A stretch of DNA of 64,000 nt, taken from the NCBI GenBank assembly GCA_015067635.1, contig SVMA01000001.1, forward strand, positions 26,913 to 90,912, read 5' to 3'. The notes beneath the pieces are model-generated. The model did not search any database. It was not told the DNA's origin and worked only from the letters and a program-made list of their open reading frames with translations. This document shows positions 17,660-47,787 of the stretch, in pieces. The DNA comes from Oscillospiraceae bacterium. Its GTDB lineage: Bacteria; Bacillota; Clostridia; Oscillospirales; Oscillospiraceae. Position 1 is the stretch's first letter, and every line of letters starts with the position of its first letter. Position numbers and translations under genes: made by a program.

Positions 17660-17671
17660 TTTTAATTATAT

Positions 17672-17720
17672 TGTAGGGGCGACCATCGGTCGTCCGCGGA
17701 CGGGCGACGACTCCCCTACA
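17672..17720. repeat. GTAG-type REP-like palindrome
   Basis: TGTAGGGGCGA...CTCCCCTACA ends in metF-cooC spacer. Confidence 0.65.
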
Positions 17721-17746
17721 TTCTTTCATTTAAGGAGCAAATATCT

Positions 17747-18517: not shown

Positions 18518-18561
18518 CAACATTATTAAAATATTTATTATTTTTAAGGAGGATATACCCT

Positions 18562-19503: not shown

Positions 19504-19523
19504 TCGAAAGGAGGATACATATT

Positions 19524-21794: not shown

Positions 21795-21813
21795 GAAATA
21801 ATCCCGCATTTAT

Positions 21814-21841
21814 GGCTGGGAGGGAACACTCCCTCCCAGCC
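21814..21841 (+). terminator. GC-rich hairpin between acsC::E and acsB
   Basis: GGCTGGGAGGGA-ACAC-TCCCTCCCAGCC; weak U-tract, so terminator or processing stem. Confidence 0.5.
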
Positions 21842-21919
21842 GGTTTGCTTATATTGCCTTCGTATATTCTGCCACACGGCCTTATATACATTTACCATTC
21901 AAATTAGGAGGAGAATATT

Positions 21920-24043
21920 ATGAGTGTATTAACTGATCTGATCTACGGCGGCAGTAATGCCGTTGCCGGTCTTACCGAAGGCGCTGTCAAGGATGCCATT
22001 GCAAAATATGGCGCAGAGAAGGAAATTTCTTTCCCTGATACTGCCTATTATTTCCCCACCATCTACGCCGCAACCGGCGTGAAGGTAAAGACCCTGGGAG
22101 ATCTGACTGCCTGCGTAGGCGTCCTGAAGAGCCTGATCACCAATCAGGAGGATCTGGGTCAGGCCTTGAACGCCGGTTTGGCCACTGCTGTGGGTGCTGA
22201 GATCCTTGAGGGCTTGAAATATCTGGAAGCAGACCCCTACGCCAACGAATCCGGCATCGGCTTTGTTCCCGACCCCATCATTCGTTCTCTGGGCGTGCCG
22301 CTGGTTACCGGCGATATCCCCGGCGTAGCCGTTGTTTTGGGCAAGGCCGACAACGCCGCCGATGTGGTGAATGTGGTAAAGGGCTACCAGTCCAAGGGCA
22401 TTATGACCTTCCTGGTTGGCGATGTCATTGAGCAGTGTGCCGAGGGCGGCGTAAAAATGGGTCTGGAGCTGCGCGTCATTCCCTTGGGTCATGATGTGAC
22501 CTCTGTCATTCACGTTGTTACCGTTGCAGTCCGTGCAGCCTTGATTTTTGGCAACATTCAGCCCGGTGATCTGGCCGGCTTGCTGGACTACACCAAAAAC
22601 CGTGTGCCCGCTTTTGTCAACACCTTCGGTGCCATTGATGCCGTGGTGGTTTCCGCCGGTGCAGGTGCCATCGCTTTGGGCTTCCCCGTTGTGGTGGATA
22701 TCGACCTGGGCGAGAACCAGGTTCCCGGTGCATTGGAGTCCGTTTGCGATCACAGTAACACCGTGAAGAAGTCTCTGGAACTGCGCGACATCAAGATCAA
22801 GACCACCGAACTGCCCATTCCCGTGGCTTTTGCGGCCGCTTTTGAGGGCGAAATCATCCGCAAGGCGGATATGCACAACGAATTCTTCTCCGGCAAGAAT
22901 CCCACCGCGGAGCTGGTTGTCATGCGGGAACTTTCCGAAATTGAGGACCACAAAATTTCTATCATCGGTCCGGACTTGGATCAAGCCTCCGAGTTGGCTC
23001 TGGCTACCTATGTGGAAGTGGCCGGCAAAAAAATGCAGGTGGACTTTGAGTCTGTTATCGAACGGAAATTCCACGCCTGGTTTAACTACATGGAAGGCGT
23101 GATGCACACCGGCCAGCGGAATCAGGTACGTATTCGTGTATCCAATGCGGCCTTTGAAGCCGGTCTGCGGCTGAAGGACTTTGCAGAGGTCCTGTACGTT
23201 ATGATCATGAATGAATTTGCGGCGGTGGTAGACAAGTGCCAAATCACCCTCATCACTGATGCCGCTGAGGCCGCCAAGTTCCGGGATGAAAAGGCAATGC
23301 CCCGTTACAGCCAAAGAGATGACCGTCTGGCATCCATGACGGACGAAGCTGTTGACCGCTACTACACCTGTATTCTCTGCCAGTCCTTTGCGCCTGCCCA
23401 CTGCTGTGTGGTCACTCCCGAACGGCTGGGTCTGTGCGGTGCTGTTTCCTGGCTGGATGCCAAGGCAACCAACGAACTGAATCCCAACGGTCCCTGCCAG
23501 CCCATTTTCAAGGAAGGCTTGCTGGATGAGCGCACCGGCCGGTTTGAGTCTGTCAACAAGATGATTACCGAAGCTACCCACGGTGCTGTAGAAAATGTAA
23601 CCCTGTACTCCATTCTGGAAGATCCCATGACCTCCTGCGGCTGCTTTGAATGTATCTGCGGCATCGAGCCTATGAGCAACGGCTTCATCGTGGTCAACCG
23701 GGAATTCAAGGGCATGACTCCCGCAGGCATGACCTTCGGCGAATTGGCATCCTGCACCGGCGGTGGTGTCCAAACTCCCGGCTATATGGGTCACGGCCGT
23801 CACTTCATCGCATCCAAGAAATTCATCTCCGCTGAGGGCGGCATCGAGCGAATCGTGTGGATGCCCAAGGAGCTGAAGGATGATGTGGCTGAACGGCTGA
23901 ACAAGACAGCCTTTGAGCTGTACGGCATCGAAAACTTCGTGGATCTGGTGGCTGACGAAACCGTCACCACCGACGGTGAAGAATTGCTGAACTGGCTGAC
24001 GGAGAAAAACCATCCCGTTTTGGGCATGGAACCGTTGCTGTAA
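21920..24043 (+). CDS. acsB: Acetyl-CoA synthase
   Basis: FPDTAY, DPIIRSLGVPLVTGDIPG, A-cluster CILCQSFAPAHC...LGLCG and MTSCGCFEC; 707 aa clostridial type. Confidence 0.97.
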   Translation: MSVLTDLIYGGSNAVAGLTEGAVKDAIAKYGAEKEISFPDTAYYFPTIYAATGVKVKTLGDLTACVGVLKSLITNQEDLGQALNAGLATAVGAEILEGLKYLEADPYANESGIGFVPDPIIRSLGVPLVTGDIPGVAVVLGKADNAADVVNVVKGYQSKGIMTFLVGDVIEQCAEGGVKMGLELRVIPLGHDVTSVIHVVTVAVRAALIFGNIQPGDLAGLLDYTKNRVPAFVNTFGAIDAVVVSAGAGAIALGFPVVVDIDLGENQVPGALESVCDHSNTVKKSLELRDIKIKTTELPIPVAFAAAFEGEIIRKADMHNEFFSGKNPTAELVVMRELSEIEDHKISIIGPDLDQASELALATYVEVAGKKMQVDFESVIERKFHAWFNYMEGVMHTGQRNQVRIRVSNAAFEAGLRLKDFAEVLYVMIMNEFAAVVDKCQITLITDAAEAAKFRDEKAMPRYSQRDDRLASMTDEAVDRYYTCILCQSFAPAHCCVVTPERLGLCGAVSWLDAKATNELNPNGPCQPIFKEGLLDERTGRFESVNKMITEATHGAVENVTLYSILEDPMTSCGCFECICGIEPMSNGFIVVNREFKGMTPAGMTFGELASCTGGGVQTPGYMGHGRHFIASKKFISAEGGIERIVWMPKELKDDVAERLNKTAFELYGIENFVDLVADETVTTDGEELLNWLTEKNHPVLGMEPLL

Positions 24044-24352: not shown

Positions 24353-24907
24353 TTATTCCATTACCGTTCCATCCGGATGGAACAGCGGCAGTTTTTCCAA
24401 ATAAATCAGGTCCTCCCGATCCTGGGCGTCTCCCTCTGCCAAAATGGCCATCCGTCCGCAGACGATTCCGCCGGCCTTTTCCACCAACGCTTCCAATGCG
24501 GAAAGGCTTTCTCCGGTGGATATCACGTCGTCCACGATCAAAATCCGTTTACCCTTCATCATCTCCGCATCATTGCCGTCAAGATACAGATGCTGCTCCT
24601 TAGCCGTGGTGATGGAGTTCACGGAGACCTCAAACAAATCCCGCATATACAGCTTCGCACCCTTACGGGCCAGTACATACTTCTTATCCCCTGCCTGCCG
24701 TGCCATTTCGTGAATCAGCGGAATACCCTTGGCCTCAGCGGTAATGAGGTAGTCATATTCCGGTGCTTTTTTCAAAAGCTCCGCGGCACAGGCCACAGTC
24801 AGCTCCGGATCTCCAAAAATCACAAAGCCGGCAATGTACAGTTCATCCGTCACCTTACATATGGGAAGCTGACGCTCCAACCCGGCAATGGTCATGGTAT
24901 GAAACAT
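24353..24907 (-). CDS. Purine phosphoribosyltransferase (APRT-like)
   Basis: TAEAKGIP, LARK, ILIVDDVISTGES PRPP motif. Confidence 0.88.
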   Translation of the reverse strand: MFHTMTIAGLERQLPICKVTDELYIAGFVIFGDPELTVACAAELLKKAPEYDYLITAEAKGIPLIHEMARQAGDKKYVLARKGAKLYMRDLFEVSVNSITTAKEQHLYLDGNDAEMMKGKRILIVDDVISTGESLSALEALVEKAGGIVCGRMAILAEGDAQDREDLIYLEKLPLFHPDGTVME

Positions 24908-26486: not shown

Positions 26487-26555
26487 TATCATAATGGAGC
26501 TTTTTGAACAGCAAATCACAAATTTGAAAACAAATTTCGACTTTTTTGTGAACGA

Positions 26556-26582
26556 AAAGGCCGCACCCGAAGGCGCGGCCTT
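26556..26582 (-). terminator. Terminator of ABC/nuclease operon
   Basis: AAGGCCGCGCC-TTCG-GGTGCGGCCTTTT on minus strand. Confidence 0.8.
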
Positions 26583-26610: not shown

Positions 26611-27960
26611 TTAAGCTGTGTAAACGTCGATCTTCTCGATACGAACCTGATGCAACAGCTCTGCAGACTGGAATACATTGGTTGCGCTTGCAAAGGTGAT
26701 CGTCACTACATCGTTGTCACGAGTAATGGTAGCACCACTCACCTCCATACCGTCAAAGCCGTCCAGATAGTCACCGTTGTTGAAATCGTCCAGTGTAAAT
26801 ACGATCTTTACCATACCGGTGTACTCGATCTTAATGGTAGAGCTCTTGTATGCTCTTGTGGAATAGTTCTTTTGCTGGTCGTAGTTGTTGGTTGTGCTGG
26901 AAGCCTTGTCGTTGGTATAAGTAATGCCGTTTGCTGCATGGACAGTCTGATTGTCGGTGCGACTGACACGGGTTGTGGTTCCAAGCATATCCAAAGATGC
27001 CGCCAATTTGCCCTGAACGCTGGGTGCAGGAGTAGTTGGCTTAGTAGTAGGTGCAGTGGTAGGAGCTGTGGTAGGCTGAGTAGTAGGAGTCGTGGGCTGA
27101 GTGGGCTCAGTTACAGGAGGTGTGGTGCCGGCAGCTTCCAGCTTGCCGTTTGCACCGGTGGTGTCGCTCAGCTCAAAGGTGTAGATATCAGCCTTGTCTG
27201 CATTCATGCCATAGCAGGTCAGGTAGCCGCTGTAAACCTCCAGGTATTGTGCTTTGCCGTTGTAGTTAGCAACAGCGCACTTGATGAAGTACTGATTGTC
27301 ACCGGCTGCGGGCTCCAGAACGAACTTGGTGTTGTCATCTGCAGTTGCAGTGAAGTTTACGTTGGTGCCGTCGCAGAACAGATACTTGCCCTCTGCGATG
27401 AAGGAAACGGTGTTGTCGTCATTTTCCTGAACGGTCAGAGCAACAGCGTCTGCCTTGCTGTCGGACAGGATCAGCTCCATCTTGGTTGTGCCGGAGGAGC
27501 TGGTGTAAGCATATTCCTTGCCGGTGATATACTTCTGGTCAGCGGGGAAATACAGGGTGGCGCCGCCTTCGCTGGTAGTAGCCTTGGCGGGAATGGTGTA
27601 ATTGAAGGAAACAGAAGCAGTCTCGCCGGCTTCGTTGGTCAGGGTTGCGGTCAGAGTGTACTTAATCTCTGTTTCGGTCTCTTCATTGATGTCGATGGTG
27701 GTCATCGTCTCACCGGGGATGATCTTGACATTGTCACCGGCATCAGCAGTCCAGGTAATGGGATATGCAACATCGCCTACCATAACCTTGCTGTACACAG
27801 TAAAGTCAGCAGCAGTCTTGGGGTTGTTGTCCTTGTACAGAGCGAACAGGTAGTCTTTTGCGCTGATGAGGTTGGCGTCTTCTGCAGGTCCGTTTGCACA
27901 GCCGGCAAAAATGGAAACACACATTACCAGCAGCAGAATATAGGAAATAATCTTTTTCAT
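26611..27960 (-). CDS. Multidomain surface lipoprotein of unknown function
   Basis: Lipobox IFAGC; Ig-like beta domain, beta-rich central domain, Pro/Thr linker, C-terminal beta domain. Confidence 0.8.
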   Translation of the reverse strand: MKKIISYILLLVMCVSIFAGCANGPAEDANLISAKDYLFALYKDNNPKTAADFTVYSKVMVGDVAYPITWTADAGDNVKIIPGETMTTIDINEETETEIKYTLTATLTNEAGETASVSFNYTIPAKATTSEGGATLYFPADQKYITGKEYAYTSSSGTTKMELILSDSKADAVALTVQENDDNTVSFIAEGKYLFCDGTNVNFTATADDNTKFVLEPAAGDNQYFIKCAVANYNGKAQYLEVYSGYLTCYGMNADKADIYTFELSDTTGANGKLEAAGTTPPVTEPTQPTTPTTQPTTAPTTAPTTKPTTPAPSVQGKLAASLDMLGTTTRVSRTDNQTVHAANGITYTNDKASSTTNNYDQQKNYSTRAYKSSTIKIEYTGMVKIVFTLDDFNNGDYLDGFDGMEVSGATITRDNDVVTITFASATNVFQSAELLHQVRIEKIDVYTA

Positions 27961-27978
27961 AGCTTTCTCCTTATCACA

Positions 27979-29301
27979 TTAATTATGAATTGTAATATCT
28001 TCTTTTGCCAAAGCCCGGATTTGATAATCTCCGTTATAGGCCTCGAGAATACCATTGATGTCAATAGTCTTTCCGGCATATACGGATTCCTGGAAGATGT
28101 TGCCGTTATCGTCGTAGAATACGCCGGTACGGATAGAAACGGTCTTCCCGTCCACCTCACAGGTCAACGTCATTGCGCCACAGTCATGGCTATCGGGGTT
28201 TGTGGTCGTGTAGACATCGGTAACCTTCAGGTTCTTCATGGAAAGGGTGGTGGAAACCGCCAGCTCCTTGAACTTCTTTGTTACCTCGCTGTCGCCGGAA
28301 GGAACGGTAACATTGCCCGCATATACTTCCGGTGTTGCCTCGGGATAGGTTACTTCGTTGCCCTTGCTGAGCTGTACGGTATTGGTGGGATCCTCGGGCT
28401 TCATGGGGTTATAGTTCAGGCTGGAGATCTGGTAGGTGCCGTAGAACTCCGTCAGAACGCCGACCACACGAACCTTGGAGCCCTGCTCCAGCACGGGAAT
28501 CAGCTGGGAATTGTAGCCGTAGAATACCTGCACGCCGTACCACATTCCGGTTTCACCGTCATAGCTTTGGATGAATGCGGTATAGTCGCTGTTATAGGTA
28601 ACGATACCCTCTACGGATACCTTCTTGCCGTTGTATTCCTCCACATTGAGCCGCAGTTCCCGCAAAGTGATGCTTGCCGCACCGCCGTAGGGATACTCGG
28701 GGTCCTTCTGTCCGGAGAACATGAACAGCTTTTCCTGAGTTGCCTGGTTGATGGCTGCAACTGCTGCCTGACCGTAACGGCCATCGGAAGCCTTGGAGCT
28801 TGCGCCCAAACCATTTTGCAGCAGTTCAATGTTCAGGCAGCGGTACTCAGCATCTGCCGCAGGCTGATACCAAACCCAAACCAGATATCTGCCGTTGCCG
28901 TCATAGTTCCAGCTTTCGCTGTCAGACTCCAGCACGATGGATGCCGCAGAGGACAGCTTTTCCTGGGTGAAGCGGGATGCCGCCTTGCCCCATTCTTCAA
29001 TCTGACCGGTGGATTCAGGTGTATCTACCGCCAGATATCTGGCCTTGATGACACCGGAAGCGTCCACAGACTTGGGCACCTCAAAGTGAGAGGTGTCGCC
29101 GTCAATTTGGCTCCGCTGCCCAAAGGTCACTTCCTGCTTCTTGGTGTTGGAATTCATGTCCAGCTTGGTTTCTGCCACATAATCCACATGGGTTGTGCCG
29201 GCGCTGGGGTTGGTTCCTTCTGTTTCACCGCAGGCGGCAAAAACCGCCGCGGCTATACAGACCACCAAAAGCAGGGAAACTACTTTTGATACATTCTTCA
29301 T
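27979..29301 (-). CDS. Thermonuclease (SNase) lipoprotein with C-terminal OB-fold repeats
   Basis: Lipobox FAAC; DGDT, RYLAVDTPE, DGNGRYLVWVW, NIELLQNGL; OB-like GKKVSVEGIVT, GSKVRVVGVLTEFYGTYQI, GKTIDINGILEAYNGDYQIR. Confidence 0.88.
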   Translation of the reverse strand: MKNVSKVVSLLLVVCIAAAVFAACGETEGTNPSAGTTHVDYVAETKLDMNSNTKKQEVTFGQRSQIDGDTSHFEVPKSVDASGVIKARYLAVDTPESTGQIEEWGKAASRFTQEKLSSAASIVLESDSESWNYDGNGRYLVWVWYQPAADAEYRCLNIELLQNGLGASSKASDGRYGQAAVAAINQATQEKLFMFSGQKDPEYPYGGAASITLRELRLNVEEYNGKKVSVEGIVTYNSDYTAFIQSYDGETGMWYGVQVFYGYNSQLIPVLEQGSKVRVVGVLTEFYGTYQISSLNYNPMKPEDPTNTVQLSKGNEVTYPEATPEVYAGNVTVPSGDSEVTKKFKELAVSTTLSMKNLKVTDVYTTTNPDSHDCGAMTLTCEVDGKTVSIRTGVFYDDNGNIFQESVYAGKTIDINGILEAYNGDYQIRALAKEDITIHN

Positions 29302-29325
29302 ATGAAATTGCTTCCTTATAAGGGA

Positions 29326-30696
29326 TTACATGCCAGCCTGGTACTTGCATTCTGCAACTGCTTCCTTGAAAGCGGCATCGATATCCACAGAAGTGGAAGC
29401 CATACACTTCTGCATCAGAAGACCAACCTGGTCACGGGCAACAGAGGAGCCGTTGAAGGCAGGAGATGCATAGTAAGCATCCTTCTGCTCCAAAGCGACC
29501 TTAACTGCGTAAGCCTGAATATGGGTGGTATCTGCACTCTGCAGGAACTCAGCGTACACAGGATTCTCTGTAACGGACTGGATAACCGGTGCATAACCGT
29601 TGTTCATGGAAACAGAAGCCTGGAACACCACGTCGGTGGTCAGGAACTTTGCAAACAGCCAGGATGCCAGCACTTCCTGAGGATTGCTCTTCTTGAAGAT
29701 GCAGAGGCTGGGACCCTGAGAAATGACTTTGGGCTTGGCTGCGTCTACCTGAGGAATGGTGGTGATACCGACCTCAAACTCAAACACGCCGTTGGTCTGG
29801 TTGGGCTGCTGATAGGTTGCACCGCCGGTGGAGCCGATACACATGTAGCAGCGTGTGCCGGAATCACTTTCGCCTGTGAACAGAGCAGAGGTGTAACCGC
29901 CGGACAGCTCTTCGGTGGTAACCAGCTTTTCATTGTACCAGCCCTGGAACTTCTTGACGAATTCCTTGTTCTTTGCATTGTCGAAGAGGAACTTGTCGCC
30001 GTCAACGCTGGTGTAGGGAGAACCGTACTGCTCACACATGGTGATGAACCAGTTGGCCTCGGAGTCATAGCCCAGAGGGATGCAGGTGGGATCGATTGCC
30101 TTGATCTGGCGGCAAACTGCTTCCATTTCGTCCCAGGTGGTGGGAACGGTCAGCTGATGCTTTTCAAAGAAGCTGCGGTTATAGTACAGAACCTCAGTGG
30201 ACTTGGAAATAGGCAGGGTGTACATCTTGCCATCACCGAAGGTCTTGCCTTCGTTATAGTAAGCAGGAATGAAGTCAGCCTTCTGCTCGGCGGTGTAGCC
30301 GTATTGGCTGTCGTCAATCAGCACGTCCAGAGTCTGCACAGCACCGGCGATGTTGTAAAGAGCAACATGATCGGGGTAGCAGTAAGCCAGGTTCGGCTGG
30401 TTGCCAACAGGAATCTCATTCTTGATTTGATCGCGGACACCGTTGTAATCGCCGTAAGTGGCATGCTCAACGGTAATGTTGGGATAAATCTTGTTGAAGT
30501 CTTCGATGGCAGTGTTCAGAATTGTCTGAAGCTGTGCGCCCATCTGGTGATAGAACTTAATGGTTACCGGAGTTTCGGTATCAAAACCGTTTTCCGGCAT
30601 CACAAAGTCTACCGCAGCGGCTTTTCCTCCGCTACAGCCTGCCATCATGGAGGCCAGCAGCATGACCACTGTCAAAATTGCTACGAGTCTTTTCAT
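29326..30696 (-). CDS. ABC substrate-binding lipoprotein (CUT1/UgpB-like)
   Basis: Lipobox MAGC; IKFYH, PNLAYCYPDH, LPISKSTEVLYYN, PTTWDE. Confidence 0.92.
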   Translation of the reverse strand: MKRLVAILTVVMLLASMMAGCSGGKAAAVDFVMPENGFDTETPVTIKFYHQMGAQLQTILNTAIEDFNKIYPNITVEHATYGDYNGVRDQIKNEIPVGNQPNLAYCYPDHVALYNIAGAVQTLDVLIDDSQYGYTAEQKADFIPAYYNEGKTFGDGKMYTLPISKSTEVLYYNRSFFEKHQLTVPTTWDEMEAVCRQIKAIDPTCIPLGYDSEANWFITMCEQYGSPYTSVDGDKFLFDNAKNKEFVKKFQGWYNEKLVTTEELSGGYTSALFTGESDSGTRCYMCIGSTGGATYQQPNQTNGVFEFEVGITTIPQVDAAKPKVISQGPSLCIFKKSNPQEVLASWLFAKFLTTDVVFQASVSMNNGYAPVIQSVTENPVYAEFLQSADTTHIQAYAVKVALEQKDAYYASPAFNGSSVARDQVGLLMQKCMASTSVDIDAAFKEAVAECKYQAGM

Positions 30697-30783
30697 TGTC
30701 GTTTCTTCCTTTCTGCTTTTCAGTCTTTCATCTTTTCTATTATGGAGAATGTCGCTTTCGCTTCCATTCTTGCTACCGGGAAA

Positions 30784-31677
30784 TCAGCCCTTAATGCCGC
30801 TTCTGGATACGCCCTTCATAATATACTTACGAAGGAAAATGAACACCAAGAACAGCGGGAAGGATACCACCGTAACCGCTGCCATCTGCACCGGGATATT
30901 GGTGACGCCTTCTGCATTGGTAAAGGCTGTACGCAAACCGTTGGTAATCAAGCGGTGTGCATCATCGTTGGCCACCAGACGGGGCCACATATAGGAGTTC
31001 CAGGAGCCCATCATCTTCAGAATGGTGATGGAGATGAGCGTAGGCAGTGCCAGCGGGATCATTACCTTGCGCAGATACTTCAAATCGCCGCAGCCGTCCA
31101 CCTTGGCGGCCAGGTACAGCTCATTGGGGATCTGCAGGAAGTTCTGCCGCAGCAGGTAAATATAGAACACGCTCACCAGGAAGGGTACAATCAAAACCGT
31201 GTAGGAATTCATCCAACCAAAGTAATTGACTGTCTGATAATTGGTAATGGTGAACAGTTCGCCGGGGATCATCATGGTTGCCAACAGACCGGCAAACAGT
31301 GCATTCTTGCCCTTGAATTCCAACCGGGCAAAGGCAAAGGCCGAAAGCACGGTAATAACCAGGGAAAGTGCCGTGGAGACCACGCCGACAAACACGGTGT
31401 TGAAGAACAGCTGTGCCAACTGAAGGTCTTTGCTGGCAAAAACCTCAGCGTAGTTCTGGAAGGCAAACACTCTGGGGAACAGCGTAGGAACGCTGAGCCG
31501 ATATTCGTCCATGGTCTTCAAGGACGAAATAATCATGAAATAGAAGGGGAAAATGACAATAATTGCCATTATGATTAAGAAGGTATAGGTAAAAGCGGTT
31601 CCTATGCCACCTACTACGCGCTGTCTGTCCGAAACCTTTTTCCAGTCGCGCTTATTCATGGTTCTGATATCCGACAT
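30784..31677 (-). CDS. ABC permease (MalG/UgpE-like)
   Basis: AFAFARL, MIPGE, LAAKVDG EAA loop, WNSYMWP. Confidence 0.93.
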   Translation of the reverse strand: MSDIRTMNKRDWKKVSDRQRVVGGIGTAFTYTFLIIMAIIVIFPFYFMIISSLKTMDEYRLSVPTLFPRVFAFQNYAEVFASKDLQLAQLFFNTVFVGVVSTALSLVITVLSAFAFARLEFKGKNALFAGLLATMMIPGELFTITNYQTVNYFGWMNSYTVLIVPFLVSVFYIYLLRQNFLQIPNELYLAAKVDGCGDLKYLRKVMIPLALPTLISITILKMMGSWNSYMWPRLVANDDAHRLITNGLRTAFTNAEGVTNIPVQMAAVTVVSFPLFLVFIFLRKYIMKGVSRSGIKG

Positions 31678-31691
31678 TTCACAGCACCTCC

Positions 31692-32636
31692 TTAATAGTA
31701 GGTCTTTTTCTTGCTGACGTACAGATTGACCATCGTCACCACGAAAATAATACCGAAGAGAATCAAGGCTGCCGCACTGGCATTGCCTTCCTGGGTACTA
31801 AGGGAACGATAAATAAATCCAACCATAGTATCCAGAGAGTAAGGATTGCCTGTGGGGCCCAGCTTATCGCCGAAAATACCTACGATGCTGGAATATTCCT
31901 TAAAACCGCCGATAAAGCCGGTAATGACGACATAGGCCAGCATGGGGGACAAAAGGGGTACGGTAATCTTGGTCAGCACTCTCCAACGGGGAGTTCCGTC
32001 CACCCGAGCCGCTTCGTAGTATTGCTTATTGATGCTCTGCAAGCCGCCCAACAAAATCAAAATCTTAAAGGGAAGAGCATTCCAGACGATGTAAACCACC
32101 ATAACCACAATGTTTGCCCAGTATTCCGATCCTGCATTGGTCCAGTTAATGTATCCAATACCGAAGAATTCCAGCACATTGTTGATGATACCCACCGAGT
32201 CCGGTCTGGTGCTGCCGCCGATGATCATGTTAAACATTGCGGCGAACACCATGCCGATGGCGATGGAGTTGGTCACATAGGGCATAAAGAAGATGGTTTG
32301 CAGCAGCTTTTGCAGCCGCTTAATGGAATTCAGCGCTACCGCAATGAGCAGAGCCAAAATAGTGGAGATCGGAACTGTCAGTATACACAGCAAAACCGTG
32401 TTCTTCAAACAGTTAACAAAATTTCCAATACCGTCATATTGCAGCACGTAGGTGTAGTTATAAAAACCAAACGAAAATCCGGGGTGCAACGGATTGGAAG
32501 CCGCCATCGTATTATAGCCCTCTAACAAGGACATCTTAATGGTGTTATAGATGGGCCATACGGTGAATATAAGAAGCAACACGATGGCAGGCGACAAATA
32601 CAGCCATGCTTTCCATTGATGTTTGCTATCTACCAT
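31692..32636 (-). CDS. ABC permease (MalF/UgpA-like)
   Basis: YLSPA, FFMPYVT, YYEAARVDG, ITVPLLSP. Confidence 0.93.
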   Translation of the reverse strand: MVDSKHQWKAWLYLSPAIVLLLIFTVWPIYNTIKMSLLEGYNTMAASNPLHPGFSFGFYNYTYVLQYDGIGNFVNCLKNTVLLCILTVPISTILALLIAVALNSIKRLQKLLQTIFFMPYVTNSIAIGMVFAAMFNMIIGGSTRPDSVGIINNVLEFFGIGYINWTNAGSEYWANIVVMVVYIVWNALPFKILILLGGLQSINKQYYEAARVDGTPRWRVLTKITVPLLSPMLAYVVITGFIGGFKEYSSIVGIFGDKLGPTGNPYSLDTMVGFIYRSLSTQEGNASAAALILFGIIFVVTMVNLYVSKKKTYY

Positions 32637-32637
32637 A

Positions 32638-33741
32638 TTACTTCACCTCAAACTCGATCCGTTCTTCAGTTTCCTTATTGAAAATGAAAACCTTGTGGGC
32701 CTTGAGTGTGTAGCTGACGGTTTCCTTGGAGGTGTCCACTTTGCTGTCTGCATCTACGATGGAACGAACAACGGGGCTCTGTGCTGCGGGATTCTCGGAC
32801 ACGATGCTCACGTCGCGGCCCATAACCTCCACGCTGTTGAGCTTACAGTGCATGGGACCGTTTTCGTCCACAATAAAGCCCTCGGGACGGATACCAACGG
32901 TAACCTCCTGATCTTCCACACCGGGAACATCCAAAACAGCATCCTCACCGATGTACAGCTTGCCGCCTTCTACCTTGCCGTCAAACACGTTGATGGGAGG
33001 AGTACCCAGGAACTTTGCAACAAACAGGTTCAGAGGATTGTCATAAACCTCCTGAGGAGCACCGATCTGCTGCACCACACCCAGCTTCATAACCACGATC
33101 ATATCGGAAATGGACATAGCCTCTTCCTGGTCGTGGGTAACGAAAATTGTGGTAATGCCGGTTTCCCGCTGAATGCGGCGGATCTCCTCACGGGTCTGCA
33201 GACGCAGACGGGCATCCAGGTTGGAAAGGGGCTCATCCAGCAAAAGAACACGGGGCATCTTAACCAGTGCACGGGCGATGGCCACACGCTGCTGCTGACC
33301 GCCGGACATTTCGCCGGGCTTGCGGTCCATCAGATCCTCGATCTGAACCAGCTTTGCGGCATAGTAGGCACGCTCCAGCATCTCATTCTTGCTCATTTTG
33401 TCAGCGCCCTTCAGGTTCTGCAGGGGGAACAGAATATTCTGCCGAACGGTCATGTGGGGATACAGTGCATAGTTCTGGAACACCAGACCGACACCGCGGT
33501 TTTCCGTGGGCAGCTCGGTAACGTCATCATCGCCGAAGAAAATCTGACCACTGGTGGGCTTCTGCAAGCCACTGATCATGTACAGCGTAGTGGACTTGCC
33601 GCAGCCGGAGGGTCCCAGCAAGCCGATCAGCTTACCATCCGGGATGGTGAATGTGAAGTCGTTAACGGCAACGACCTCCTCGTTAACCTTCTTGTTCCGA
33701 CTGGGGAAAACCTTCGTCAGATTTTGCAAAACAACTTTCAT
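32638..33741 (-). CDS. ABC ATPase (MalK/UgpC-like)
   Basis: GPSGCGKST, VFQNYALYPHM, MSGGQQQR, LLDEPLSNLDA, TOBE-like tail. Confidence 0.95.
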   Translation of the reverse strand: MKVVLQNLTKVFPSRNKKVNEEVVAVNDFTFTIPDGKLIGLLGPSGCGKSTTLYMISGLQKPTSGQIFFGDDDVTELPTENRGVGLVFQNYALYPHMTVRQNILFPLQNLKGADKMSKNEMLERAYYAAKLVQIEDLMDRKPGEMSGGQQQRVAIARALVKMPRVLLLDEPLSNLDARLRLQTREEIRRIQRETGITTIFVTHDQEEAMSISDMIVVMKLGVVQQIGAPQEVYDNPLNLFVAKFLGTPPINVFDGKVEGGKLYIGEDAVLDVPGVEDQEVTVGIRPEGFIVDENGPMHCKLNSVEVMGRDVSIVSENPAAQSPVVRSIVDADSKVDTSKETVSYTLKAHKVFIFNKETEERIEFEVK

Positions 33742-33813
33742 ATAATTCCCTTCCTATATAAAAATTTTCCTACTTTTTATTCTCAAGGAACGCGCTGTTC
33801 CTTAATGACGTAA

Positions 33814-34554
33814 TTAGTTTTCGTTGATCCGTGCTTCGTATGCATCCCGTGCTTCCGGGCAATCAAAAATCATCTGGCTGGAATATTCCACCACAACGGT
33901 GTGAGACATCAGGTCATGGATGGTGGAACGGTTCCGTGTAAAGCCCATTATGCCCAACTGCAAGGTCAGGAACAATGTCAAAAACAGCAGACCGTTAATG
34001 TTTACCAAGCCAAATACACTCATCACCAGAAATGCCACCGGAATCATGGTCTCAACGGTGTACTTACCGAGCACCGTCCGGACGAAAAGCAAAAACGGAG
34101 AGATTTTCACGCTGTCCGTACGCATCACCGCAAGTCCGAGGGCCTTTTTGCCCAAGGTCTGTCCATTTTTGAACAGCAAGGGAACAGCAATTTCCAAAAT
34201 CAGATAAGGAATCAAAAGTCCCAGCGACAAGGTCAGCAAAATCAGATTCAAAACCATCTCGTATGTCTGCTTAGCTTCCATATCCTGCGCCAGCATCGTA
34301 GCGGCGTGATTCATAATCAGCTTTTCCTCTTCGGACATTTTATCCCAGTCCTCTTGGGTCATGTAAAAGCTGATGCCGTATTTTTCCTCATACTCGGCGT
34401 AAATATTGTCCAGCTTTACCGTATGGTCGCCCAAGTGCACCATTTCGCTCAAAAGAGAAATGATGAGTACCGCAAGGGAAATGAACAAAAATGCATCAAG
34501 GAACCAGGCACCGAATCTCTTGCCCATGCCGGCTCTTTGGATATCATATTTCAT
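33814..34554 (-). CDS. RDD family membrane protein
   Basis: KRFGAWFLD, GQTLGK, R-STIHDLMSHTVVV. Confidence 0.87.
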   Translation of the reverse strand: MKYDIQRAGMGKRFGAWFLDAFLFISLAVLIISLLSEMVHLGDHTVKLDNIYAEYEEKYGISFYMTQEDWDKMSEEEKLIMNHAATMLAQDMEAKQTYEMVLNLILLTLSLGLLIPYLILEIAVPLLFKNGQTLGKKALGLAVMRTDSVKISPFLLFVRTVLGKYTVETMIPVAFLVMSVFGLVNINGLLFLTLFLTLQLGIMGFTRNRSTIHDLMSHTVVVEYSSQMIFDCPEARDAYEARINEN

Positions 34555-34665
34555 GTTTTTTGCCTCCGTGGATAGGAAATAAATTCTTATTTATACTTAG
34601 CGCATATATTATAGCACAGTTTCCTGCAAAAATCCACATCAAGTTGCATAAATTTCCAACTTTTT

Positions 34666-35517
34666 TCAACTCTTGTGTAACCGTTTTTCCAGTGCCGTCA
34701 TTAGTCCGCAAGGGATAGCCAAATTCCCCTGTCCGATGCCCATTTGGATGTGCGGTTTGTTCCCTCCGTGGTAATCGCTTCCGCCGCTGGGCAGCAAGCC
34801 AAAGTCCGCTGCCACCTTTTCTGCCAACGCGGTGGTTTTTTCGTCGTAGGTGGAATAGTAAACCTCCATGCCGTCCAGACCGCAGGGAACTGCCTCTTTC
34901 AAAAATTCCCGCAGTGGCGTCTCCTCCAAATTCAAAAACGGATGGGCAAGCACCGCCACCGCACCCAGGGATTTGATGAAGCGAATAATTTCAAAGGGCG
35001 AAAAACGCTCCGGCGGCGTATAGTATCCGCATTTGGGACGAAGCAGTGTCTGGAATGCCTCCTGAATGGATTTGGTATACCCCAGCCTGGTCAATTCTGC
35101 AGCAATCAGCGCCCGATTGACCTGCCCCTGTGGGGTATTGTCCTTGATGCGGTGATAATCCACTTCGTAGCCGGCGGCATTCAGCTTTTCCACCAGGTCC
35201 AGATTGCTTTGCTCTTTCCTGATTCGGAATTCTTCCAGCAGCGCAGTAATGGGTGCGTAATCCTCCGGCTTCAGGAACAGACCCAGAATATGCAGCTCCG
35301 TCCCCTGATAAACCGTGGAAAATTCTGTGCCTGCAATGGCGCGGACCTTCCTTCCCTCGGCAGCCTTCAGAAAATCCGGCAGCCCTGCCACCGTATTGTG
35401 GTCTGTCAGCGCAATGGCACAAAGCCCCTGCTTTTCCGCCAGCTCCAGCAGTTGCTCCGGTGTATCCGTTCCGTCGGAAAAAACGGAATGGTTATGCAAA
35501 TCACAAAAAAGTGCCAT
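34666..35517 (-). CDS. PHP-domain phosphoesterase (TrpH/YciV-like)
   Basis: DLHNHSVFSDG, LTDHNT, ELHILG, LAHP, GGSDYHG. Confidence 0.9.
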   Translation of the reverse strand: MALFCDLHNHSVFSDGTDTPEQLLELAEKQGLCAIALTDHNTVAGLPDFLKAAEGRKVRAIAGTEFSTVYQGTELHILGLFLKPEDYAPITALLEEFRIRKEQSNLDLVEKLNAAGYEVDYHRIKDNTPQGQVNRALIAAELTRLGYTKSIQEAFQTLLRPKCGYYTPPERFSPFEIIRFIKSLGAVAVLAHPFLNLEETPLREFLKEAVPCGLDGMEVYYSTYDEKTTALAEKVAADFGLLPSGGSDYHGGNKPHIQMGIGQGNLAIPCGLMTALEKRLHKS

Positions 35518-35718: not shown

Positions 35719-37182
35719 ATGGAAAATCTCGGCTTTGACAACGGAAAATATCTGCAAACCCAATCTGCCCATATTCGCCGGCGGCTGGATGCTTTCGGTG
35801 GAAAGCTGTATTTGGAATTTGGCGGCAAGCTGTATGACGATAATCATGCCGCACGGGTACTGCCGGGCTTCAAGCCGGACAGCAAACTGCAAATGCTCTT
35901 GCAGCTGAAGGATCAGGTGGAAATCGTCATCGTCATCAATGCCGGTGACATTGAGAAAAATAAGGTGCGCGGAGATTTGGGCATCACCTATGACAGGGAC
36001 GTCCTGCGGCTTTTGAAAATTTTCCGTGATCTGGAGCTGTACGTATCCAGCGTGGTTTTGACCCGCTTCCGGGGTCAGCCCGTAGCAAAAGCTTTTCAGG
36101 CCAGACTGGAAGGGATGGGTCTGAAGGTATACCATCATTTTGATATTGAAGGCTATCCCTCAGATACTGCCCGTGTGGTCAGTGATGAAGGCTTCGGAAA
36201 AAATGACTACATTGAAACCACCCGTTCCCTGGTGGTGGTTACCGCCCCCGGCCCGGGAAGCGGCAAGCTGGCTACCTGCTTGAGTCAGCTGTATCATGAG
36301 CATCAGCGGGGTGCTCAGGCCGGCTATGCCAAATTTGAAACCTTCCCCATCTGGAATCTGCCCCTCAACCATCCGGTGAATCTTGCTTATGAGGCGGCAA
36401 CTGCTGACTTAAATGATGTCAACATGCTCGACCCCTTCCATTTGGAAGCCTATGGGGAGACCACCGTTAATTACAATCGGGATGTGGAAGCATTTCCCGT
36501 ATTGGTTGCCATGTTTGAACAGCTTTTGGGAAATTGTCCCTACAAATCCCCCACAGATATGGGTGTCAACATGGTGGGCAACTGCATCATTGACGATGAA
36601 CAGGTAAAGGAAGCTTCCCGTCAGGAGATTATCCGCCGCTATTACACTGCCCTGTGTGACCATAAAAAAGGCACCGCTTCCGATGAAGTGGTGCGCAAGC
36701 TGGAGCTGTTGGTAAAAAAAGTAGGGGTTGAGCTGTCCGCCCGCAGTGTGGTTGCCGCCGCTTTGGAAAAAGCACAGGTCACCGGTCTGCCCGCCGTTGC
36801 CATTCAACTTCCGGACGGTCAGATCATCACCGGTAAAACCTCCAACCTGCTGGGTGCCTCTGCGGCAGCTCTGCTCAATGCGCTGAAGACTCTGGGCGGC
36901 ATCCGGGACAAGCTGCATCTGATCGCACCGGTGGTCATTGATCCCATTCAAACGCTGAAAACCGGTTATTTGGGAAATCGGAATCCCCGATTGCACACCG
37001 ATGAAATTCTGATCGCACTGTCCATCAGCGCTGCCACGAATCCCACCGCAGAGCTGGCAATGGAACAGCTGAGTAAGCTTCGGGATTGTGAGCTCCATTC
37101 CACCGTCATTTTGTCCGAGGTGGATGAGCTGATGTTCAAGCGTTTGGGTGTCCGCGTCACCTGCGAGCCCGTTTTCGGATAA
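35719..37182 (+). CDS. DUF1846/UPF0371 family protein
   Basis: GFDNGKY, LYLEFGGKL, TAPGPGSGK, YAKFETFP, SPTDMGVN. Confidence 0.88.
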   Translation: MENLGFDNGKYLQTQSAHIRRRLDAFGGKLYLEFGGKLYDDNHAARVLPGFKPDSKLQMLLQLKDQVEIVIVINAGDIEKNKVRGDLGITYDRDVLRLLKIFRDLELYVSSVVLTRFRGQPVAKAFQARLEGMGLKVYHHFDIEGYPSDTARVVSDEGFGKNDYIETTRSLVVVTAPGPGSGKLATCLSQLYHEHQRGAQAGYAKFETFPIWNLPLNHPVNLAYEAATADLNDVNMLDPFHLEAYGETTVNYNRDVEAFPVLVAMFEQLLGNCPYKSPTDMGVNMVGNCIIDDEQVKEASRQEIIRRYYTALCDHKKGTASDEVVRKLELLVKKVGVELSARSVVAAALEKAQVTGLPAVAIQLPDGQIITGKTSNLLGASAAALLNALKTLGGIRDKLHLIAPVVIDPIQTLKTGYLGNRNPRLHTDEILIALSISAATNPTAELAMEQLSKLRDCELHSTVILSEVDELMFKRLGVRVTCEPVFG

Positions 37183-37195
37183 CTGCAAAAATATA

Positions 37196-37228
37196 AGCGG
37201 TCGATTGCATCAGACAATCGACCGCTTT
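37196..37228. terminator. Bidirectional terminator
   Basis: AAGCGGTCGATTG...CAATCGACCGCTTTT. Confidence 0.8.
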
Positions 37229-37235
37229 TCTTTTC

Positions 37236-37814
37236 TCAATATTCCCGAACGACGGCCTTTACCACGCCGATCAGTTCCGCTTCACTGCCGTCAATGGGTT
37301 CGTACTGATCATTTTCCGGCATCAGCCAAATTTCTCCGTTACGGCGGCGAAGCCGCTTAACGGTTGCCTCATCCCCAATCCGGGCGACCACGATCTGCCC
37401 GTCATTCGCTGTTTCCTGGGGACGAACCACCACCTTGTCACCGCCGAGGATTCCCGCATTGATCATGCTGTCGCCCCGCACGCGCAGTGCGAAGCAATGG
37501 GGGTCACCTTCCCAAGCCATCGTCCCCTCCTGATTCTCCACCGCCAAAATCGGCATACCGGCTGTGACCACACCCACAATGGGAATCTGCCCCTGGCGGA
37601 TACCGGTGGACAGAGCACGCTTGCGACCCTTAGCGCCGGGAGCATGGAGCATTCCCTTGTCCTGCAGGGCCTGAATATGATAGCTGACCGATGCCGTAGA
37701 ACGCAGTCCCACCGCCGCACCGATCTCCCGCACAGAGGGGGCGTAGCCATACTCTTGGATAAAGGTGTTCACATACTCTAAAATTTTCTCTGCCTTATCG
37801 CTGGTGCGCGGCAT
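37236..37814 (-). CDS. lexA: SOS repressor LexA
   Basis: GYAPSVREIG wHTH, AG cleavage site (VTAGMP), GDSM Ser, TVKR Lys. Confidence 0.93.
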   Translation of the reverse strand: MPRTSDKAEKILEYVNTFIQEYGYAPSVREIGAAVGLRSTASVSYHIQALQDKGMLHAPGAKGRKRALSTGIRQGQIPIVGVVTAGMPILAVENQEGTMAWEGDPHCFALRVRGDSMINAGILGGDKVVVRPQETANDGQIVVARIGDEATVKRLRRRNGEIWLMPENDQYEPIDGSEAELIGVVKAVVREY

Positions 37815-38869: not shown

Positions 38870-41800
38870 TTATTTGAAATACTCCACAGCAGATTGGAAC
38901 AGCTTCATATCATATTCCCCGGGGACATTCCGGTAAAGACCCTGATTCCAGCGTTCACTGTGACCCATCTTGCCCAATACGCGGCCATCTGGAGAAGTAA
39001 TGCCCTCAATGGCAAACAAAGAGCCGTTGGGATTGAAATGAATATCATCGGTGGCATTGCCCTGAAGGTCTACATATTGCGTCGCCACCTGACCGTTGGC
39101 AATCAATGTCCTTGCCAACGCCTCCTCACAGTAGAAACGTCCTTCTCCGTGGGAAATGGGCACATTGTATACCTCTCCTACCTGCGTACCCGTCAGCCAG
39201 GGAGACAGATTGGATGCCACACGGGTGCGAACGATCCGGCTTTGGTGTCGAGCTATGGTGTTAAAGGTCAGGGTGGGACAGGTCTCGTCCGTATCTATGA
39301 TTTTGCCGTAAGGCACCAGACCCAGCTTAATGAGTGCCTGGAAGCCGTTGCAGATACCCAGCATCAAACCGTCCCGGTTCTCCAACAGCTCAGTGACCCG
39401 TTCCTTGACTGCACCGTTGCGGAAAAATGCGGTTATGAACTTGCCGGAGCCATCCGGCTCATCTCCGCCGGAGAAGCCACCGGGAATGAAGATTACCTGA
39501 CTTTCTTTGATCTTTTCCGCAAATTGCTCCACACTGCGGCTGATCGCACCGGCTGTGCGGTTTTGAATTACGAAAATCTCCGGCTCTGCACCGGCAGCTG
39601 CCACCGCCTTGGCAGAATCATACTCACAGTTGGTTCCGGGGAAAACAGGTATCAACACCTTGGGTTTTGCCGTTCGAACGGCAGGAGCCACCGGCAGGGG
39701 TGCCATGTGAGAAACCGTAGGTATGGGGGCATTTTCACCGGTAATGTTGCAGGAATATACGGGTTCCAGCTTACTCTCGTAGGCTGTGAGCACGCTTTCC
39801 ATGGAAAGCTTTTCTTCTCCGAAAACAAATTCGCTTTCCTGTGTGGTAACACCTAGCACCTGTCCCACTTCCCCGTCTGCCATTTCCAGCACAAAGCCGC
39901 CGTAGCAATAGCCAAAGAGGATATCCATGGGCACTGCGGCATCCAATTTGACACCGATGCCGTTGCCGAAGCTCATTTTCATCACCGCTTCTGCCACACC
40001 GCCCATACCCGGGGTGTAGGCTGCAACAGCCTTGCCTTCCCGTAAAAGTGCCGTCACCTGACTGAAAATACTGCGCAGGGAGTCCGTTTCGGGCAGACGG
40101 TTTTTATCATACTGCGGCTTCAGCAGGCAGATTTTATGTCCTGCTCCCTTCCATTCCGGAGATACCACCTCACCCACCTTGCCGGTAGTCACCGCAAAGG
40201 ACACCAGCGTGGGCGGAACATCCAGATTTTCAAAGGTTCCGGACATGGAATCCTTGCCGCCGATGGCGCCGATTCCCAAATCCATTTGGGCCCGGAAAGC
40301 TCCCAACAGAGCCGCTACAGGCTTTCCCCACCGCTTCGGGTCCTTGCCGAGGCGTTCAAAATACTCCTGGAAGGTCAAATAAACATCTTCAAAGGACGCA
40401 CCGGTAGCAATCAGCTTGGAAACAGATTCCACCACCGCCAAATACGCGCCATGATAGGGGCTCTTTTCCGTAATAAAGGGATTGTAGCCGAAGGACATAT
40501 AGGAACAGTCCTCTGTGCTTCCCTTTTCCACGGATATCTTCTGCACCATAGCCTGAATGGGCGTAAGCTGGTATTTGCCGCCAAAGGGCATCAGCACCGT
40601 GCCTGCACCGATGGTAGAGTCAAACCGTTCCGAAAGTCCCCGCTTGGAGCAGGTGTTCAGGTCCGATGCTACGGACAGGAAGTTATCGCAAAAACCGCCG
40701 GAAACCGCCTTTTCATAGCTCTGTGGTTTGGGACAAAGGGCGGTAATATGCTTGTCTGCACCGTTGGAATTTAAGAATTCCCGGCTGATGTCGCAGATTT
40801 TTTTGCCGTTCCAGTTCATCACCAAACGCTTTTCTTCCGTTACCGTCGCCACCACGCAGGCTTGCAGATTTTCCGTTTCCGCCAGCGACAGGAACGTCTG
40901 GGCATCCTTGCTTTCCACTACCACAGCCATTCGTTCCTGCGATTCGGAAATGGCCAGCTCCGTACCGTCCAGACCCTCGTATTTCTTGGGGACCTTGTTC
41001 AAGTCAATAATCAGTCCGTCCGCCAGTTCTCCAATCGCCACCGACACACCGCCGGCGCCGAAGTCATTGCAACGCTTGATCAGTCTGGATGCAATGGGAT
41101 TGCGGAACAATCTCTGCAATTTCCGTTCTTCCGGAGCATTGCCCTTTTGCACTTCCGCACCGCAGGTTTCCAGGGACTGTACGGTGTGGCTTTTGGACGA
41201 GCCGGTAGCACCGCCACAGCCGTCCCGACCGGTGGAGCCACCCAGTAAAATGACCACGTCCCCTGCTTCGGGACGCTCTCTGCGTACGTTTTCTGCCGGT
41301 GCGGCGGCAATGACTGCGCCGATCTCCATCCGCTTGGCCGCATAGCCGGGATGGTATATCTCATCCACAATACCGGTGGCAAGACCGATCTGGTTGCCAT
41401 AGGAAGAATAGCCGGCGGCCGCTGTGGTCACGATTTTCCGTTGGGGCAGCTTGCCCGGAATCGTTTCAGAAACCGGCTTCAGCGGGTCTGCCGCACCGGT
41501 TACACGCATAGCACCGTATACATAGCTCCGACCGGAAAGGGGGTCCCGAATGGCACCACCGATACAGGTTGCCGCACCACCGAAGGGTTCAATTTCCGTG
41601 GGATGATTATGGGTCTCGTTTTTGAACAGCAACAGCCACGGCTGCGTTTCTCCGTCAACCGTAACCTGAATTTTTACCGTACAGGCATTGATCTCCTCGC
41701 TCTCATCCAGCTTGGAAAGCTGCCCGTTCATCCGCAGATGCTTCACTGCAATGGTCGCAAGATCCATCAGGCAGATGCTCTTATGGGTGCGACCCAGTTC

Positions 41801-42559: not shown

Positions 42560-42569
42560 ATTTTTCTCC

Positions 42570-43835: not shown

Positions 43836-43901
43836 AGATACCTCCCTTAATCCGTGGGAATCCACTTGGCTCTCCCTCTGGGAGAGCCGGTTTTTTGTGC
43901 C

Positions 43902-45086: not shown

Positions 45087-45117
45087 GTTAATTACCTCCA
45101 ATATTCCGGTTTAGAAT

Positions 45118-45232: not shown

Positions 45233-45236
45233 GTGC

Positions 45237-47610: not shown

Positions 47611-47638
47611 AATGGCGCTCCTTTTCACAAACGTTTTC

Positions 47639-47770: not shown

Positions 47771-47787
47771 TATAGTGGGGAAAGATT

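Follow-up and report, generated by a model that had tools for sequence, protein, structure and literature searches.

What does a bacterium take up with an ABC importer whose operon also encodes a nuclease for the cell surface? The question is raised by seven genes in a 64,000-nucleotide stretch of an Oscillospiraceae bacterium (GenBank assembly GCA_015067635.1, contig SVMA01000001.1, positions 26,913 to 90,912), hereafter the window. The host genome is a metagenome-assembled genome (MAG) of 1.55 Mb that is 86% complete. Databases name this transporter family 'multiple sugar' or 'glycerol-3-phosphate' transporters, a probable misannotation anticipated by an earlier note made from the bare DNA (the original prediction), which had proposed that DNA or RNA is digested at the surface and that nucleotides or short oligonucleotides are imported. 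We consider, with a probability of roughly 0.87, that the operon is a conserved cassette for harvesting extracellular nucleic acid, a function predicted from sequence comparison. Its features, including an SNase lipoprotein and a solute-binding lipoprotein (SBP), are as follows.

34608..34616, minus strand: extended -10 promoter-like site, TG-c-TATAAT, directly 5′ of the RDD gene (TATAAT at 34608-34613).
33814..34554, minus strand: RDD-family membrane protein, 246 amino acids, first operon gene (Pfam RDD, E 2.6e-11).
32638..33741, minus strand: CUT1/MalK-type ABC ATPase, 367 amino acids (Pfam ABC_tran and OB_MalK above cut-off).
31692..32636, minus strand: ABC permease 1, UgpA/MalF-like, 314 amino acids (Pfam BPD_transp_1).
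30784..31677, minus strand: ABC permease 2, UgpE/MalG-like, 297 amino acids (Pfam BPD_transp_1).
29326..30696, minus strand: SBP, 456 amino acids (Pfam SBP_bac_8/1), with a pocket like that of a Thermus UpG-dinucleotide binder.
27979..29301, minus strand: SNase lipoprotein, 440 amino acids, with a thermonuclease domain (about residues 60-200; Pfam SNase, E 1.7e-9) and two OB-type domains.
26611..27960, minus strand: modular surface lipoprotein, 449 amino acids, last gene, without a Pfam match above cut-off.
26550..26582, minus strand: intrinsic terminator-like hairpin and U-run (GC hairpin at 26557-26582).

The open reading frames (ORFs) and Pfam domains agree with the predicted arrangement of seven co-oriented, tightly spaced genes, the intergenic gaps from the RDD gene to the last lipoprotein gene being 72, 1, 14, 87, 24 and 18 bp. 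The extended -10 pattern precedes the RDD gene in 25 of 58 relatives, as compared with 3 of 69 control windows within the operon. The hairpin (-27.2 kcal/mol, z -3.3, with 2 of 200 shuffles equally good) and its U-run stand where a single terminator had been proposed; a consensus terminator scanner did not have this operon-end hairpin on its list. We take the promoter-like site as the 5′ boundary of the operon and the terminator-like hairpin as its end. A signal peptide and a lipobox cysteine (C21, C24 and C21) can be read from the sequences of all three lipoproteins.

We examined whether the nuclease has the residues expected for activity. Its motifs D67-G-D69-T, R88-x4-D93-T-P-E96 and D134-x-x-G-R138 are intact, as had been noticed before, and align to the RLLLVDTPE and DKYGRGL segments of S. 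aureus nuclease; D67, D69, R88, D93, E96 and R138 correspond to D19, D21, R35, D40, E43 and R87, which we take to be the catalytic and Ca2+ residues of that enzyme. Five of them (D67, D69, R88, E96 and R138) do not vary among the 83 aligned relatives (32-71% identity), and at the D93 position 44 carry Asp and 39 carry Asn. Foldseek matched an AlphaFold model of the lipoprotein (pLDDT 94) to staphylococcal nuclease (E 4e-10, TM by target 0.84). The C-terminus consists of two beta-rich OB-type domains, as proposed: Pfam tRNA_anti-codon gives a weak match (E 0.003), and an OB profile built from the lipoproteins of relatives matches both domains. The family is large, with 5,503 proteins among 7,999 scored candidates and 190 clusters of 50% identity at E 1e-30. 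Thus, the nuclease, predicted to act at the cell surface, has intact catalytic residues.

The nuclease and the importer are tightly linked. With each species represented by one genome, a scan yielded at least 594 confirmed stretches, of which we examined the 80 best matches, mostly from related herbivore-gut MAGs. Represented among these 80 are Oscillospiraceae, Acutalibacteraceae, Lachnospiraceae, unclassified Clostridia, one record titled Mollicutes and two Spirochaetales. The SBP gene lies directly upstream of the SNase gene in all 80 loci, and the RDD gene heads the operon in all 65 with sufficient upstream DNA, so that the proposed linkage held in this gene-neighbourhood check. Among 151 genomes of the same genus (genus inferred), 39 encode the SNase, each with the SBP gene directly upstream; 40 encode this SBP type, 39 of them together with the SNase. 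The exception, L218 (G014:C26), carries the whole cassette minus the SNase, keeps the NT5C, PHP, SurE and two NrnA genes, and is possibly a nuclease-less scavenger. Of 15 full-length SNase-OB-OB loci from a metagenome scan with distant members, 13 had the SBP gene upstream, and it was upstream of none of 64 short stand-alone SNases (0/49 when at least 1.6 kb of upstream DNA was present).

Two natural fusions join the same components: P0259 (993 amino acids) combines SBP and SNase, and P0215 (626 amino acids) is SBP-OB-OB without a nuclease domain. Complex prediction for the SBP and the SNase scored 0.57, as against 0.00 for the best control, with runs sharing at least 82% of contacts and partner pLDDT of at least 86. 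Of 157 solved pairs 116 reached the mark used, as did 2 of 215 mismatched pairs, but just 18 of the 157 solved pairs and both mismatches did so at 0.60 or below; the prediction gives weak support to contact between the two proteins. We also observed, in L015 (G029:C52:1-12843), a tandem duplication within the operon, in the order SBP, OB lipoprotein, SBP, SNase, large lipoprotein.

What the importer carries should be reflected in the pocket of its binding protein. The best PDB sequence match of the SBP is the 7C0F series (E 4e-18; profile E 2.5e-24, versus 2.8e-18 for UgpB), and Foldseek ranks 1-22 for its model are all 7C0/7C1 entries of the same dinucleotide binder. These structures (7C0F-7C1B, Thermus thermophilus) are titled dinucleotide-binding protein bound to uridylyl-3′-5′-phospho-guanosine (UpG, U3G); we take the locus tag of the protein to be TTHA0379. 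The mutants named in the PDB titles, Y56F, F79A, N81A, S127A, Y224A, T240A, Y246A and Q274A, concern positions that align to Y84, Y107, D109, S166, Y268, S289, Y295 and Q327 of the SBP, four of them placed by substitutions in printed alignments and four by residue counting. Five of the eight are identical and three similar, and six of the eight are invariant among 72 SBPs, compared with 73 of 411 columns overall (p 5e-4).

The phosphate-binding part of the pocket is also kept. According to the available part of PMC12718374, two Tyr and two Ser form a phosphate clamp that UgpB has in common with GPC and U3G binders and that glucose binders lack, while two Trp are specific to UgpB. Alignment to E. 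coli UgpB showed that the clamp is kept in the SBP as Y84, S166, S289 and Y368, whereas the Trp clamp is replaced by A214 and F217, and E89 by P108. All 72 SBPs have S166, S289 and Y368, and so do all distant SNase-linked SBPs, which have the same pocket; the control SBP of the nuclease-free locus L137 lacks it. A bridging subgroup of SBPs carries QAYANNI/FNKS motifs, near the QAFENNI/FNKS of the Thermus binder. The pocket is therefore likely to be a phosphodiester/dinucleotide pocket and not one for sugar or glycerol-3-phosphate (G3P), a predicted specificity that agrees with the original prediction. Linkage, nuclease residues and pocket type, the three computable points on which that prediction could have fallen, did not refute it. 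We consider it fairly probable that the importer takes up dinucleotide-sized phosphodiester fragments, not sugars; the proposed import of nucleotides or short oligonucleotides is thus supported by pocket and neighbours and narrowed to a likely fragment size.

We then addressed the genes around the operon, annotating one representative per cluster and leaving out clusters that on visual inspection looked like wrong-frame shadows of the neighbour genes. The commonest neighbours in the 80 loci are SurE and a pair of NrnA-like genes (35 each) and an NT5C-guanylate kinase fusion (28), followed by ecto-5′/3′-nucleotidase-like (19), Ig plus RNase-like (13), DeoC (11), PHP (10), dGTPase, Udp and Tdk (9 each), Cdd (7), DeoB (6) and Pdp (3). 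Some of these annotations are weak, NrnA reaching 240 versus 350 bits and the RNase domain E 4e-4, both below cut-offs. All annotated families found in at least 3 of the 80 loci act on nucleotides, except a decarboxylase subunit (3 loci) and an unnamed 172-amino acid protein (9 loci). At least one nucleotide-acting neighbour is present in 59 of the 75 loci with flanks, and such genes account for 234 of the 529 genes called heuristically in the flanks. No glycoside hydrolase or LacI-type gene is among the window's flanking genes checked, as had been noted, and the 150 nearest other gene clusters (of 264) contain three glycoside hydrolase-type genes, in 2 loci, and no LacI and no glycerophosphodiesterase at E 1e-12.

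Two of these neighbours deserve mention in their own right. The NT5C 5′-nucleotidase-guanylate-kinase-like fusion (L022:2440-3570 and relatives) is co-oriented with and directly upstream of the RDD gene in several loci. The unnamed 172-amino acid protein (L060:15081-15599 and relatives) lies among salvage genes and has no Pfam or NCBIfam match.

The host genome holds the whole proposed downstream route: contig C25 encodes SurE, two NrnA, cdd, deoB, a nucleoside phosphorylase, deoC and tdk, and contig C5 encodes udp. SNases yield short 3′-phosphate products, and NrnA-type enzymes are oligoribonucleases. On this basis, we propose that nucleic acid would be captured by the two OB domains of the SNase and the variable Ig/OB lipoprotein, and cleaved in a Ca2+-dependent manner, as family knowledge and the invariant residues suggest, to short 3′-phosphate products, from which an ecto-nucleotidase might remove the terminal phosphate. 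The SBP would bind the fragments, which it may receive straight from the nuclease, as one natural fusion and the weak complex prediction hint, and the CUT1 ABC system would import them. In the cytoplasm, two NrnA-like oligoribonucleases, SurE and PHP could trim them, and the products would enter salvage (APT, Tdk) or pentose catabolism (DeoD/Udp, DeoB, DeoC); for these last steps the genes are present and the flux is our proposal. More tentatively, and at somewhat less than even odds, the cassette is representative of a widespread CUT1 subfamily in which dinucleotides pass straight from the nuclease to the SBP, enter intact and are cut by NrnA only inside the cell.

Several observations speak against this interpretation. 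The counts from the 80 loci are not independent, as the genomes are kin, and thus overstate independence. The SBP is just 20-22% identical to the Thermus dinucleotide binder, and ligand contact at the eight mutated sites is deduced from PDB entry titles. Y84 is Trp in 22 and Y295 is His in 35 of the 72 SBPs, and the pocket of the fusion P0259 is degenerate. Furthermore, VIA-align ties M. tuberculosis UgpB (Z 38.6) with the dinucleotide binder (Z 37.8), and G328 and R421 of the SBP match G307 and R397, glycerol-hydroxyl contacts of UgpB that appear to be kept.

The last two points would fit an ABC system that imports glycerophosphodiesters, glycerol-phosphate or sugar and is merely co-regulated with the nuclease for phosphate or carbon scavenging. 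The NCBIfam UgpB model also matches all 72 SBPs (best E 3e-20), UgpC is the best NCBIfam model for the ATPase (346 bits, below the cut-off of 432), and the host has glycerophosphodiesterase genes, on other contigs. The operon indeed belongs to the same CUT1 branch as UgpBAEC and keeps the phosphate-binding Tyr/Ser. The window SBP, however, scores 53 bits against a cut-off of 411 with the UgpB model (NF008211), the Trp clamp and the Glu are lost, and there is no ugpQ neighbour; nor did the flanks show glycerophosphodiesterase or LacI neighbours, or more glycoside hydrolases than those in 2 loci, although a linked glycoside hydrolase and LacI-type regulator are what sugar CUT1 operons have. Considering also the strict adjacency of the nuclease, we regard a glycerophosphate or sugar importer as improbable.

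A more serious alternative accepts the scavenging and assigns nucleosides or mononucleotides to the importer, which would serve as the nucleoside transporter of the cell after full hydrolysis and dephosphorylation outside. Here again some of the evidence tells against import of dinucleotide-sized fragments: an ecto-nucleotidase-like gene adjoins the 19 loci counted above and another such lipoprotein is encoded on host contig C30, the NrnA and SurE genes of the host lie on another contig than the window, and no known nucleoside transporter family, whether CUT2 permease, NupC or NCS2, was found in the 86% complete host genome. In addition, a UgpE-like permease of M. bovis is described as importing nucleosides in the part of PMC12838404 available to us, and the accessible portion of PMC8289736 reads a homologous ABC system in Izemoplasma as a nucleoside/nucleobase transporter. 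By contrast, the invariance of the phosphate-coordinating S166, S289 and Y368 in all 72 SBPs, and the position of cytoplasmic NrnA-like pairs and SurE as the commonest neighbours, are hard to explain with nucleoside-only entry. We therefore consider import of nucleosides or mononucleotides unlikely, though appreciably less so than that of glycerophosphates or sugars, and favour dinucleotide-sized fragments. The sole Bmp match in the host is a 670-amino acid protein with a C-terminal Bmp/PnrA-like domain at window positions 63045-64000 (contig C16:89958-91970); it has no adjoining ABC genes, and a phosphoesterase-like gene follows.

Does the host depend on imported bases? Window positions 38870-50154 hold a de novo purine cluster comprising purL, purD-like, AICAR transformylase, a separate IMP cyclohydrolase (PF07826), purN-like and purM-like genes, with a divergent purF-like match below the TIGR01134 cut-off, and the host also has pyrB for de novo pyrimidine synthesis. 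We rejected nucleotide auxotrophy by this gene content. With genes for making purines and pyrimidines de novo, the host would not need the operon for obligate salvage as mycoplasmas do, and these genes suggest that imported fragments would serve economy, or carbon and phosphorus supply, rather than provide essential bases.

The closest published system is the DNA-degradation locus of Ca. Izemoplasmatales (PMC8289736, Fig. 6 and Supplementary Table 5; also PMC8397711 and PMC10470597). In the sections of these papers available to us, the Ca. Izemoplasma acidinucleici taxon was labelled by 13C-DNA (PMC8289736), and cultured relatives grew better on DNA/RNA, one of them inducing the locus (PMC8397711, PMC10470597); the SBP of the locus is annotated as G3P-binding in the supplement of PMC8289736. 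Both loci place directly after the SBP gene an SNase gene of the same family and then a modular lipoprotein gene. By-eye comparison with the supplementary material we had from PMC8289736 indicated that the SBP of Ca. Izemoplasma acidinucleici has the same pocket motifs and lies beside an SNase and an NrnA pair, a linkage echoed by the 35 gut loci with an adjacent pair.

Similar loci turned up in low-GC genomes: L145, L147, L153 and L163 share the order ATPase, permease, permease, SBP, SNase, large lipoprotein, second SNase, NrnA, NrnA, and we call them Izemoplasma-like by layout, not taxonomy. Their large lipoprotein has Ig repeats, with a lamin-tail domain in L145, L147 and L163; L145 and L147 also encode a metallo-beta-lactamase-fold protein, and L147 a Na/Pi transporter. 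Izemoplasma-like loci score 227-283 bits against the gut SBP profile, and the gut SBPs group with them (100/98) in a careful tree of 31 rows, built without a mixture model and with long outgroup branches flagged, which replaced a larger quick tree. No tree contained the Thermus dinucleotide-binder sequence.

The differences are also clear. The Izemoplasmatales host is wall-less and marine, whereas the operon studied here resides in walled gut Clostridia; the gut operon has an additional RDD gene in front; and the lipoprotein of about 1,000 amino acids with OB, lamin-tail and nuclease domains is replaced by one of 449 amino acids with Ig and trefoil domains, only position and an Ig-like start being common to the two. 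The second nuclease, NrnA pair and phosphate transporter of the Izemoplasmatales locus are absent from this operon and from the rest of the window. Because the core is common while the large multi-domain protein and the in-locus NrnA and phosphate genes are lacking and RDD is added, the gut operon is, by sequence comparison, a variant of the Izemoplasmatales locus and not a plain member. The original description as a mollicute-like system in a walled gut clostridium is refined in that the mycoplasma operons it cited are less close than the Izemoplasmatales locus. In L054:493-5208, the record titled Mollicutes, a gut cassette lies directly after dnaX-ybaB-recR, as in Izemoplasma-like loci; this position is a single hint at the source lineage.

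The mycoplasma systems compared were M. agalactiae MAG_5030 P80/MAG_5040/MAG_5050-5070, mhp379, MHO_0730, Mpn133 and MG186. As far as the accessible text of PMC3585158 goes, an SBP gene directly precedes the SNase lipoprotein gene there too, in one transcript with a sugar-type ABC system; the ABC genes come after the SNase (PMC3585158, PMC9740415, available parts), however, whereas here they come before it. MG186 is described as a Ca2+-dependent surface nuclease. The extra OB domains, the RDD protein, the second lipoprotein and a host that is not a nucleotide auxotroph by gene content further separate the gut operon. The homology to mycoplasma P68/P80 is weak, the window SBP scoring 28 bits against a cut-off of 200 with the P68 lipoprotein model NF045826, which 68 of the 72 SBPs match weakly (best E 7e-14).

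Bacillus subtilis YhcR, which we assume to combine SNase and OB folds with a nucleotidase domain on the cell surface, differs in that here the OB domains are C-terminal, no nucleotidase domain is present, and the gene lies within an ABC operon. YhcR-like OB domains are also named in the supplement of PMC8289736, as far as available.

A role in DNA handling unrelated to feeding, for instance defence against incoming DNA, clearance of biofilm or extracellular traps, or sensing, with uptake as a by-product, would account for a hypervariable surface lipoprotein in a host that makes its own nucleotides, and mycoplasma SNases are linked to degradation of neutrophil extracellular traps in the portion of PMC9740415 at our disposal. 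Co-location of the catabolic deoB, deoC, udp and pdp genes and the Na/Pi transporter of distant loci argue otherwise, as do the Izemoplasmatales isolates that grow on DNA/RNA and induce the homologous locus (PMC8397711, PMC10470597, available parts). This is the least probable of the alternatives, very unlikely in our judgement, and harvesting remains the preferred function.

The cassette is patchily distributed: of 200 genomes spanning the family one carries it, and 400 from the whole phylum yielded a single full-length match. In a quick tree, the SBPs of Faecousia-titled genomes are not monophyletic (AU p 1.7e-69), which points to lateral spread of the cassette. A search of viral contigs gave no SBP relative, and a plasmid search gave 85 records, all below 60% identity (the 30 displayed at 22-27%), with no close relative among them.

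The host itself carries a sister cassette on contig C25:82760-86966 (L101:6760-10966), with permeases, an SBP with the same pocket and a two-OB lipoprotein, and without an adjacent ATPase, SNase or RDD gene. SurE and two NrnA-like genes lie 5 kb off, and cdd-deoB-phosphorylase-deoC-tdk 13-17 kb off. Its SBP type occurs in 18 of 200 family genomes and in many same-genus genomes. As this SBP nests among SNase-linked SBPs in the careful tree, the sister cassette looks like a scavenger that lost its nuclease. The lack of an adjacent ATPase raises the idea that the operon ATPase may also power it.

We came across no published account of the gut cassette in a literature search that did not extend to most subscription papers or to bioRxiv supplements. 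New here are the walled gut hosts with de novo purine genes, the added RDD protein, the lateral spread, the nuclease-less sister cassette and the dinucleotide reading. The usual assumption, according to the available text of PMC8289736, is that bacteria strip the phosphate from products of nucleic-acid breakdown before taking them up. A phosphodiester-type binding protein hard-linked to a nuclease and to cytoplasmic oligoribonucleases offers an alternative that is testable with one purified protein. The operon also points to uncultured gut clostridia as DNA/RNA recyclers in the herbivore hindgut and suggests DNA/RNA as a supplement for their cultivation. If intact dinucleotides are indeed imported, the Thermus UpG binder would gain a physiological role, the 'nucleoside transporter' reading of the Izemoplasma locus would be corrected, a ligand class would be named for the mycoplasma 'nucleotide transporter', and hundreds of herbivore-gut species would share a locus for using nucleic acids that spreads laterally and has scavenger variants lacking the nuclease.

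The RDD protein, which has a loop of about 60 residues after its first hydrophobic segment, falls in Atlas RDD clusters (score 0.98) and is encoded in none of the 15 distant full-length SNase loci. The last lipoprotein consists of an N-terminal Ig-like domain, a beta-trefoil-like domain (residues 132-269 resemble RicinB-type trefoils, TM 0.73), a Pro/Thr linker and an unnamed C-terminal domain. The Ig-like domain is present in 76 of 76 family members. The family is otherwise hypervariable, ranging from 231 to 2544 amino acids with some members cut by contig ends, and the window copy is a short member; the OB profile found repeats in 65 of 75 relatives and none in the window copy. A pairing of RDD with the Ig domain was considered and given up, since distant loci have Ig-type lipoproteins without RDD.

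Two flanking genes were also annotated.

34666..35517, minus strand: PHP phosphoesterase (3′,5′-nucleoside bisphosphate phosphatase/RNase AM-like), a separate unit upstream (E 5e-39, below cut-off).
24353..24907, minus strand: adenine phosphoribosyltransferase, two genes downstream (NF005592, 218 bits versus a cut-off of 143).

We did not favour PHP as an operon member, as the promoter-like site lies between it and the RDD gene; it adjoins the operon in the 10 loci counted above. The adenine phosphoribosyltransferase gene is near the operon in 1 of the 80 loci and is probably a local neighbour only. Upstream of PHP, at window positions 35719-37814, are genes for a DUF1846 protein (above the NCBIfam cut-off) and a LexA-like repressor, an arrangement repeated in L090. 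Elsewhere in the window, and with no CO dehydrogenase gene among its ORFs, positions 16730-24043 hold a partial Wood-Ljungdahl cluster, in which metF, cooC/acsF-like, acsD, an acsC-acsE fusion (756 amino acids, with CdhD, FeS and pterin-binding domains) and acsB form one run.

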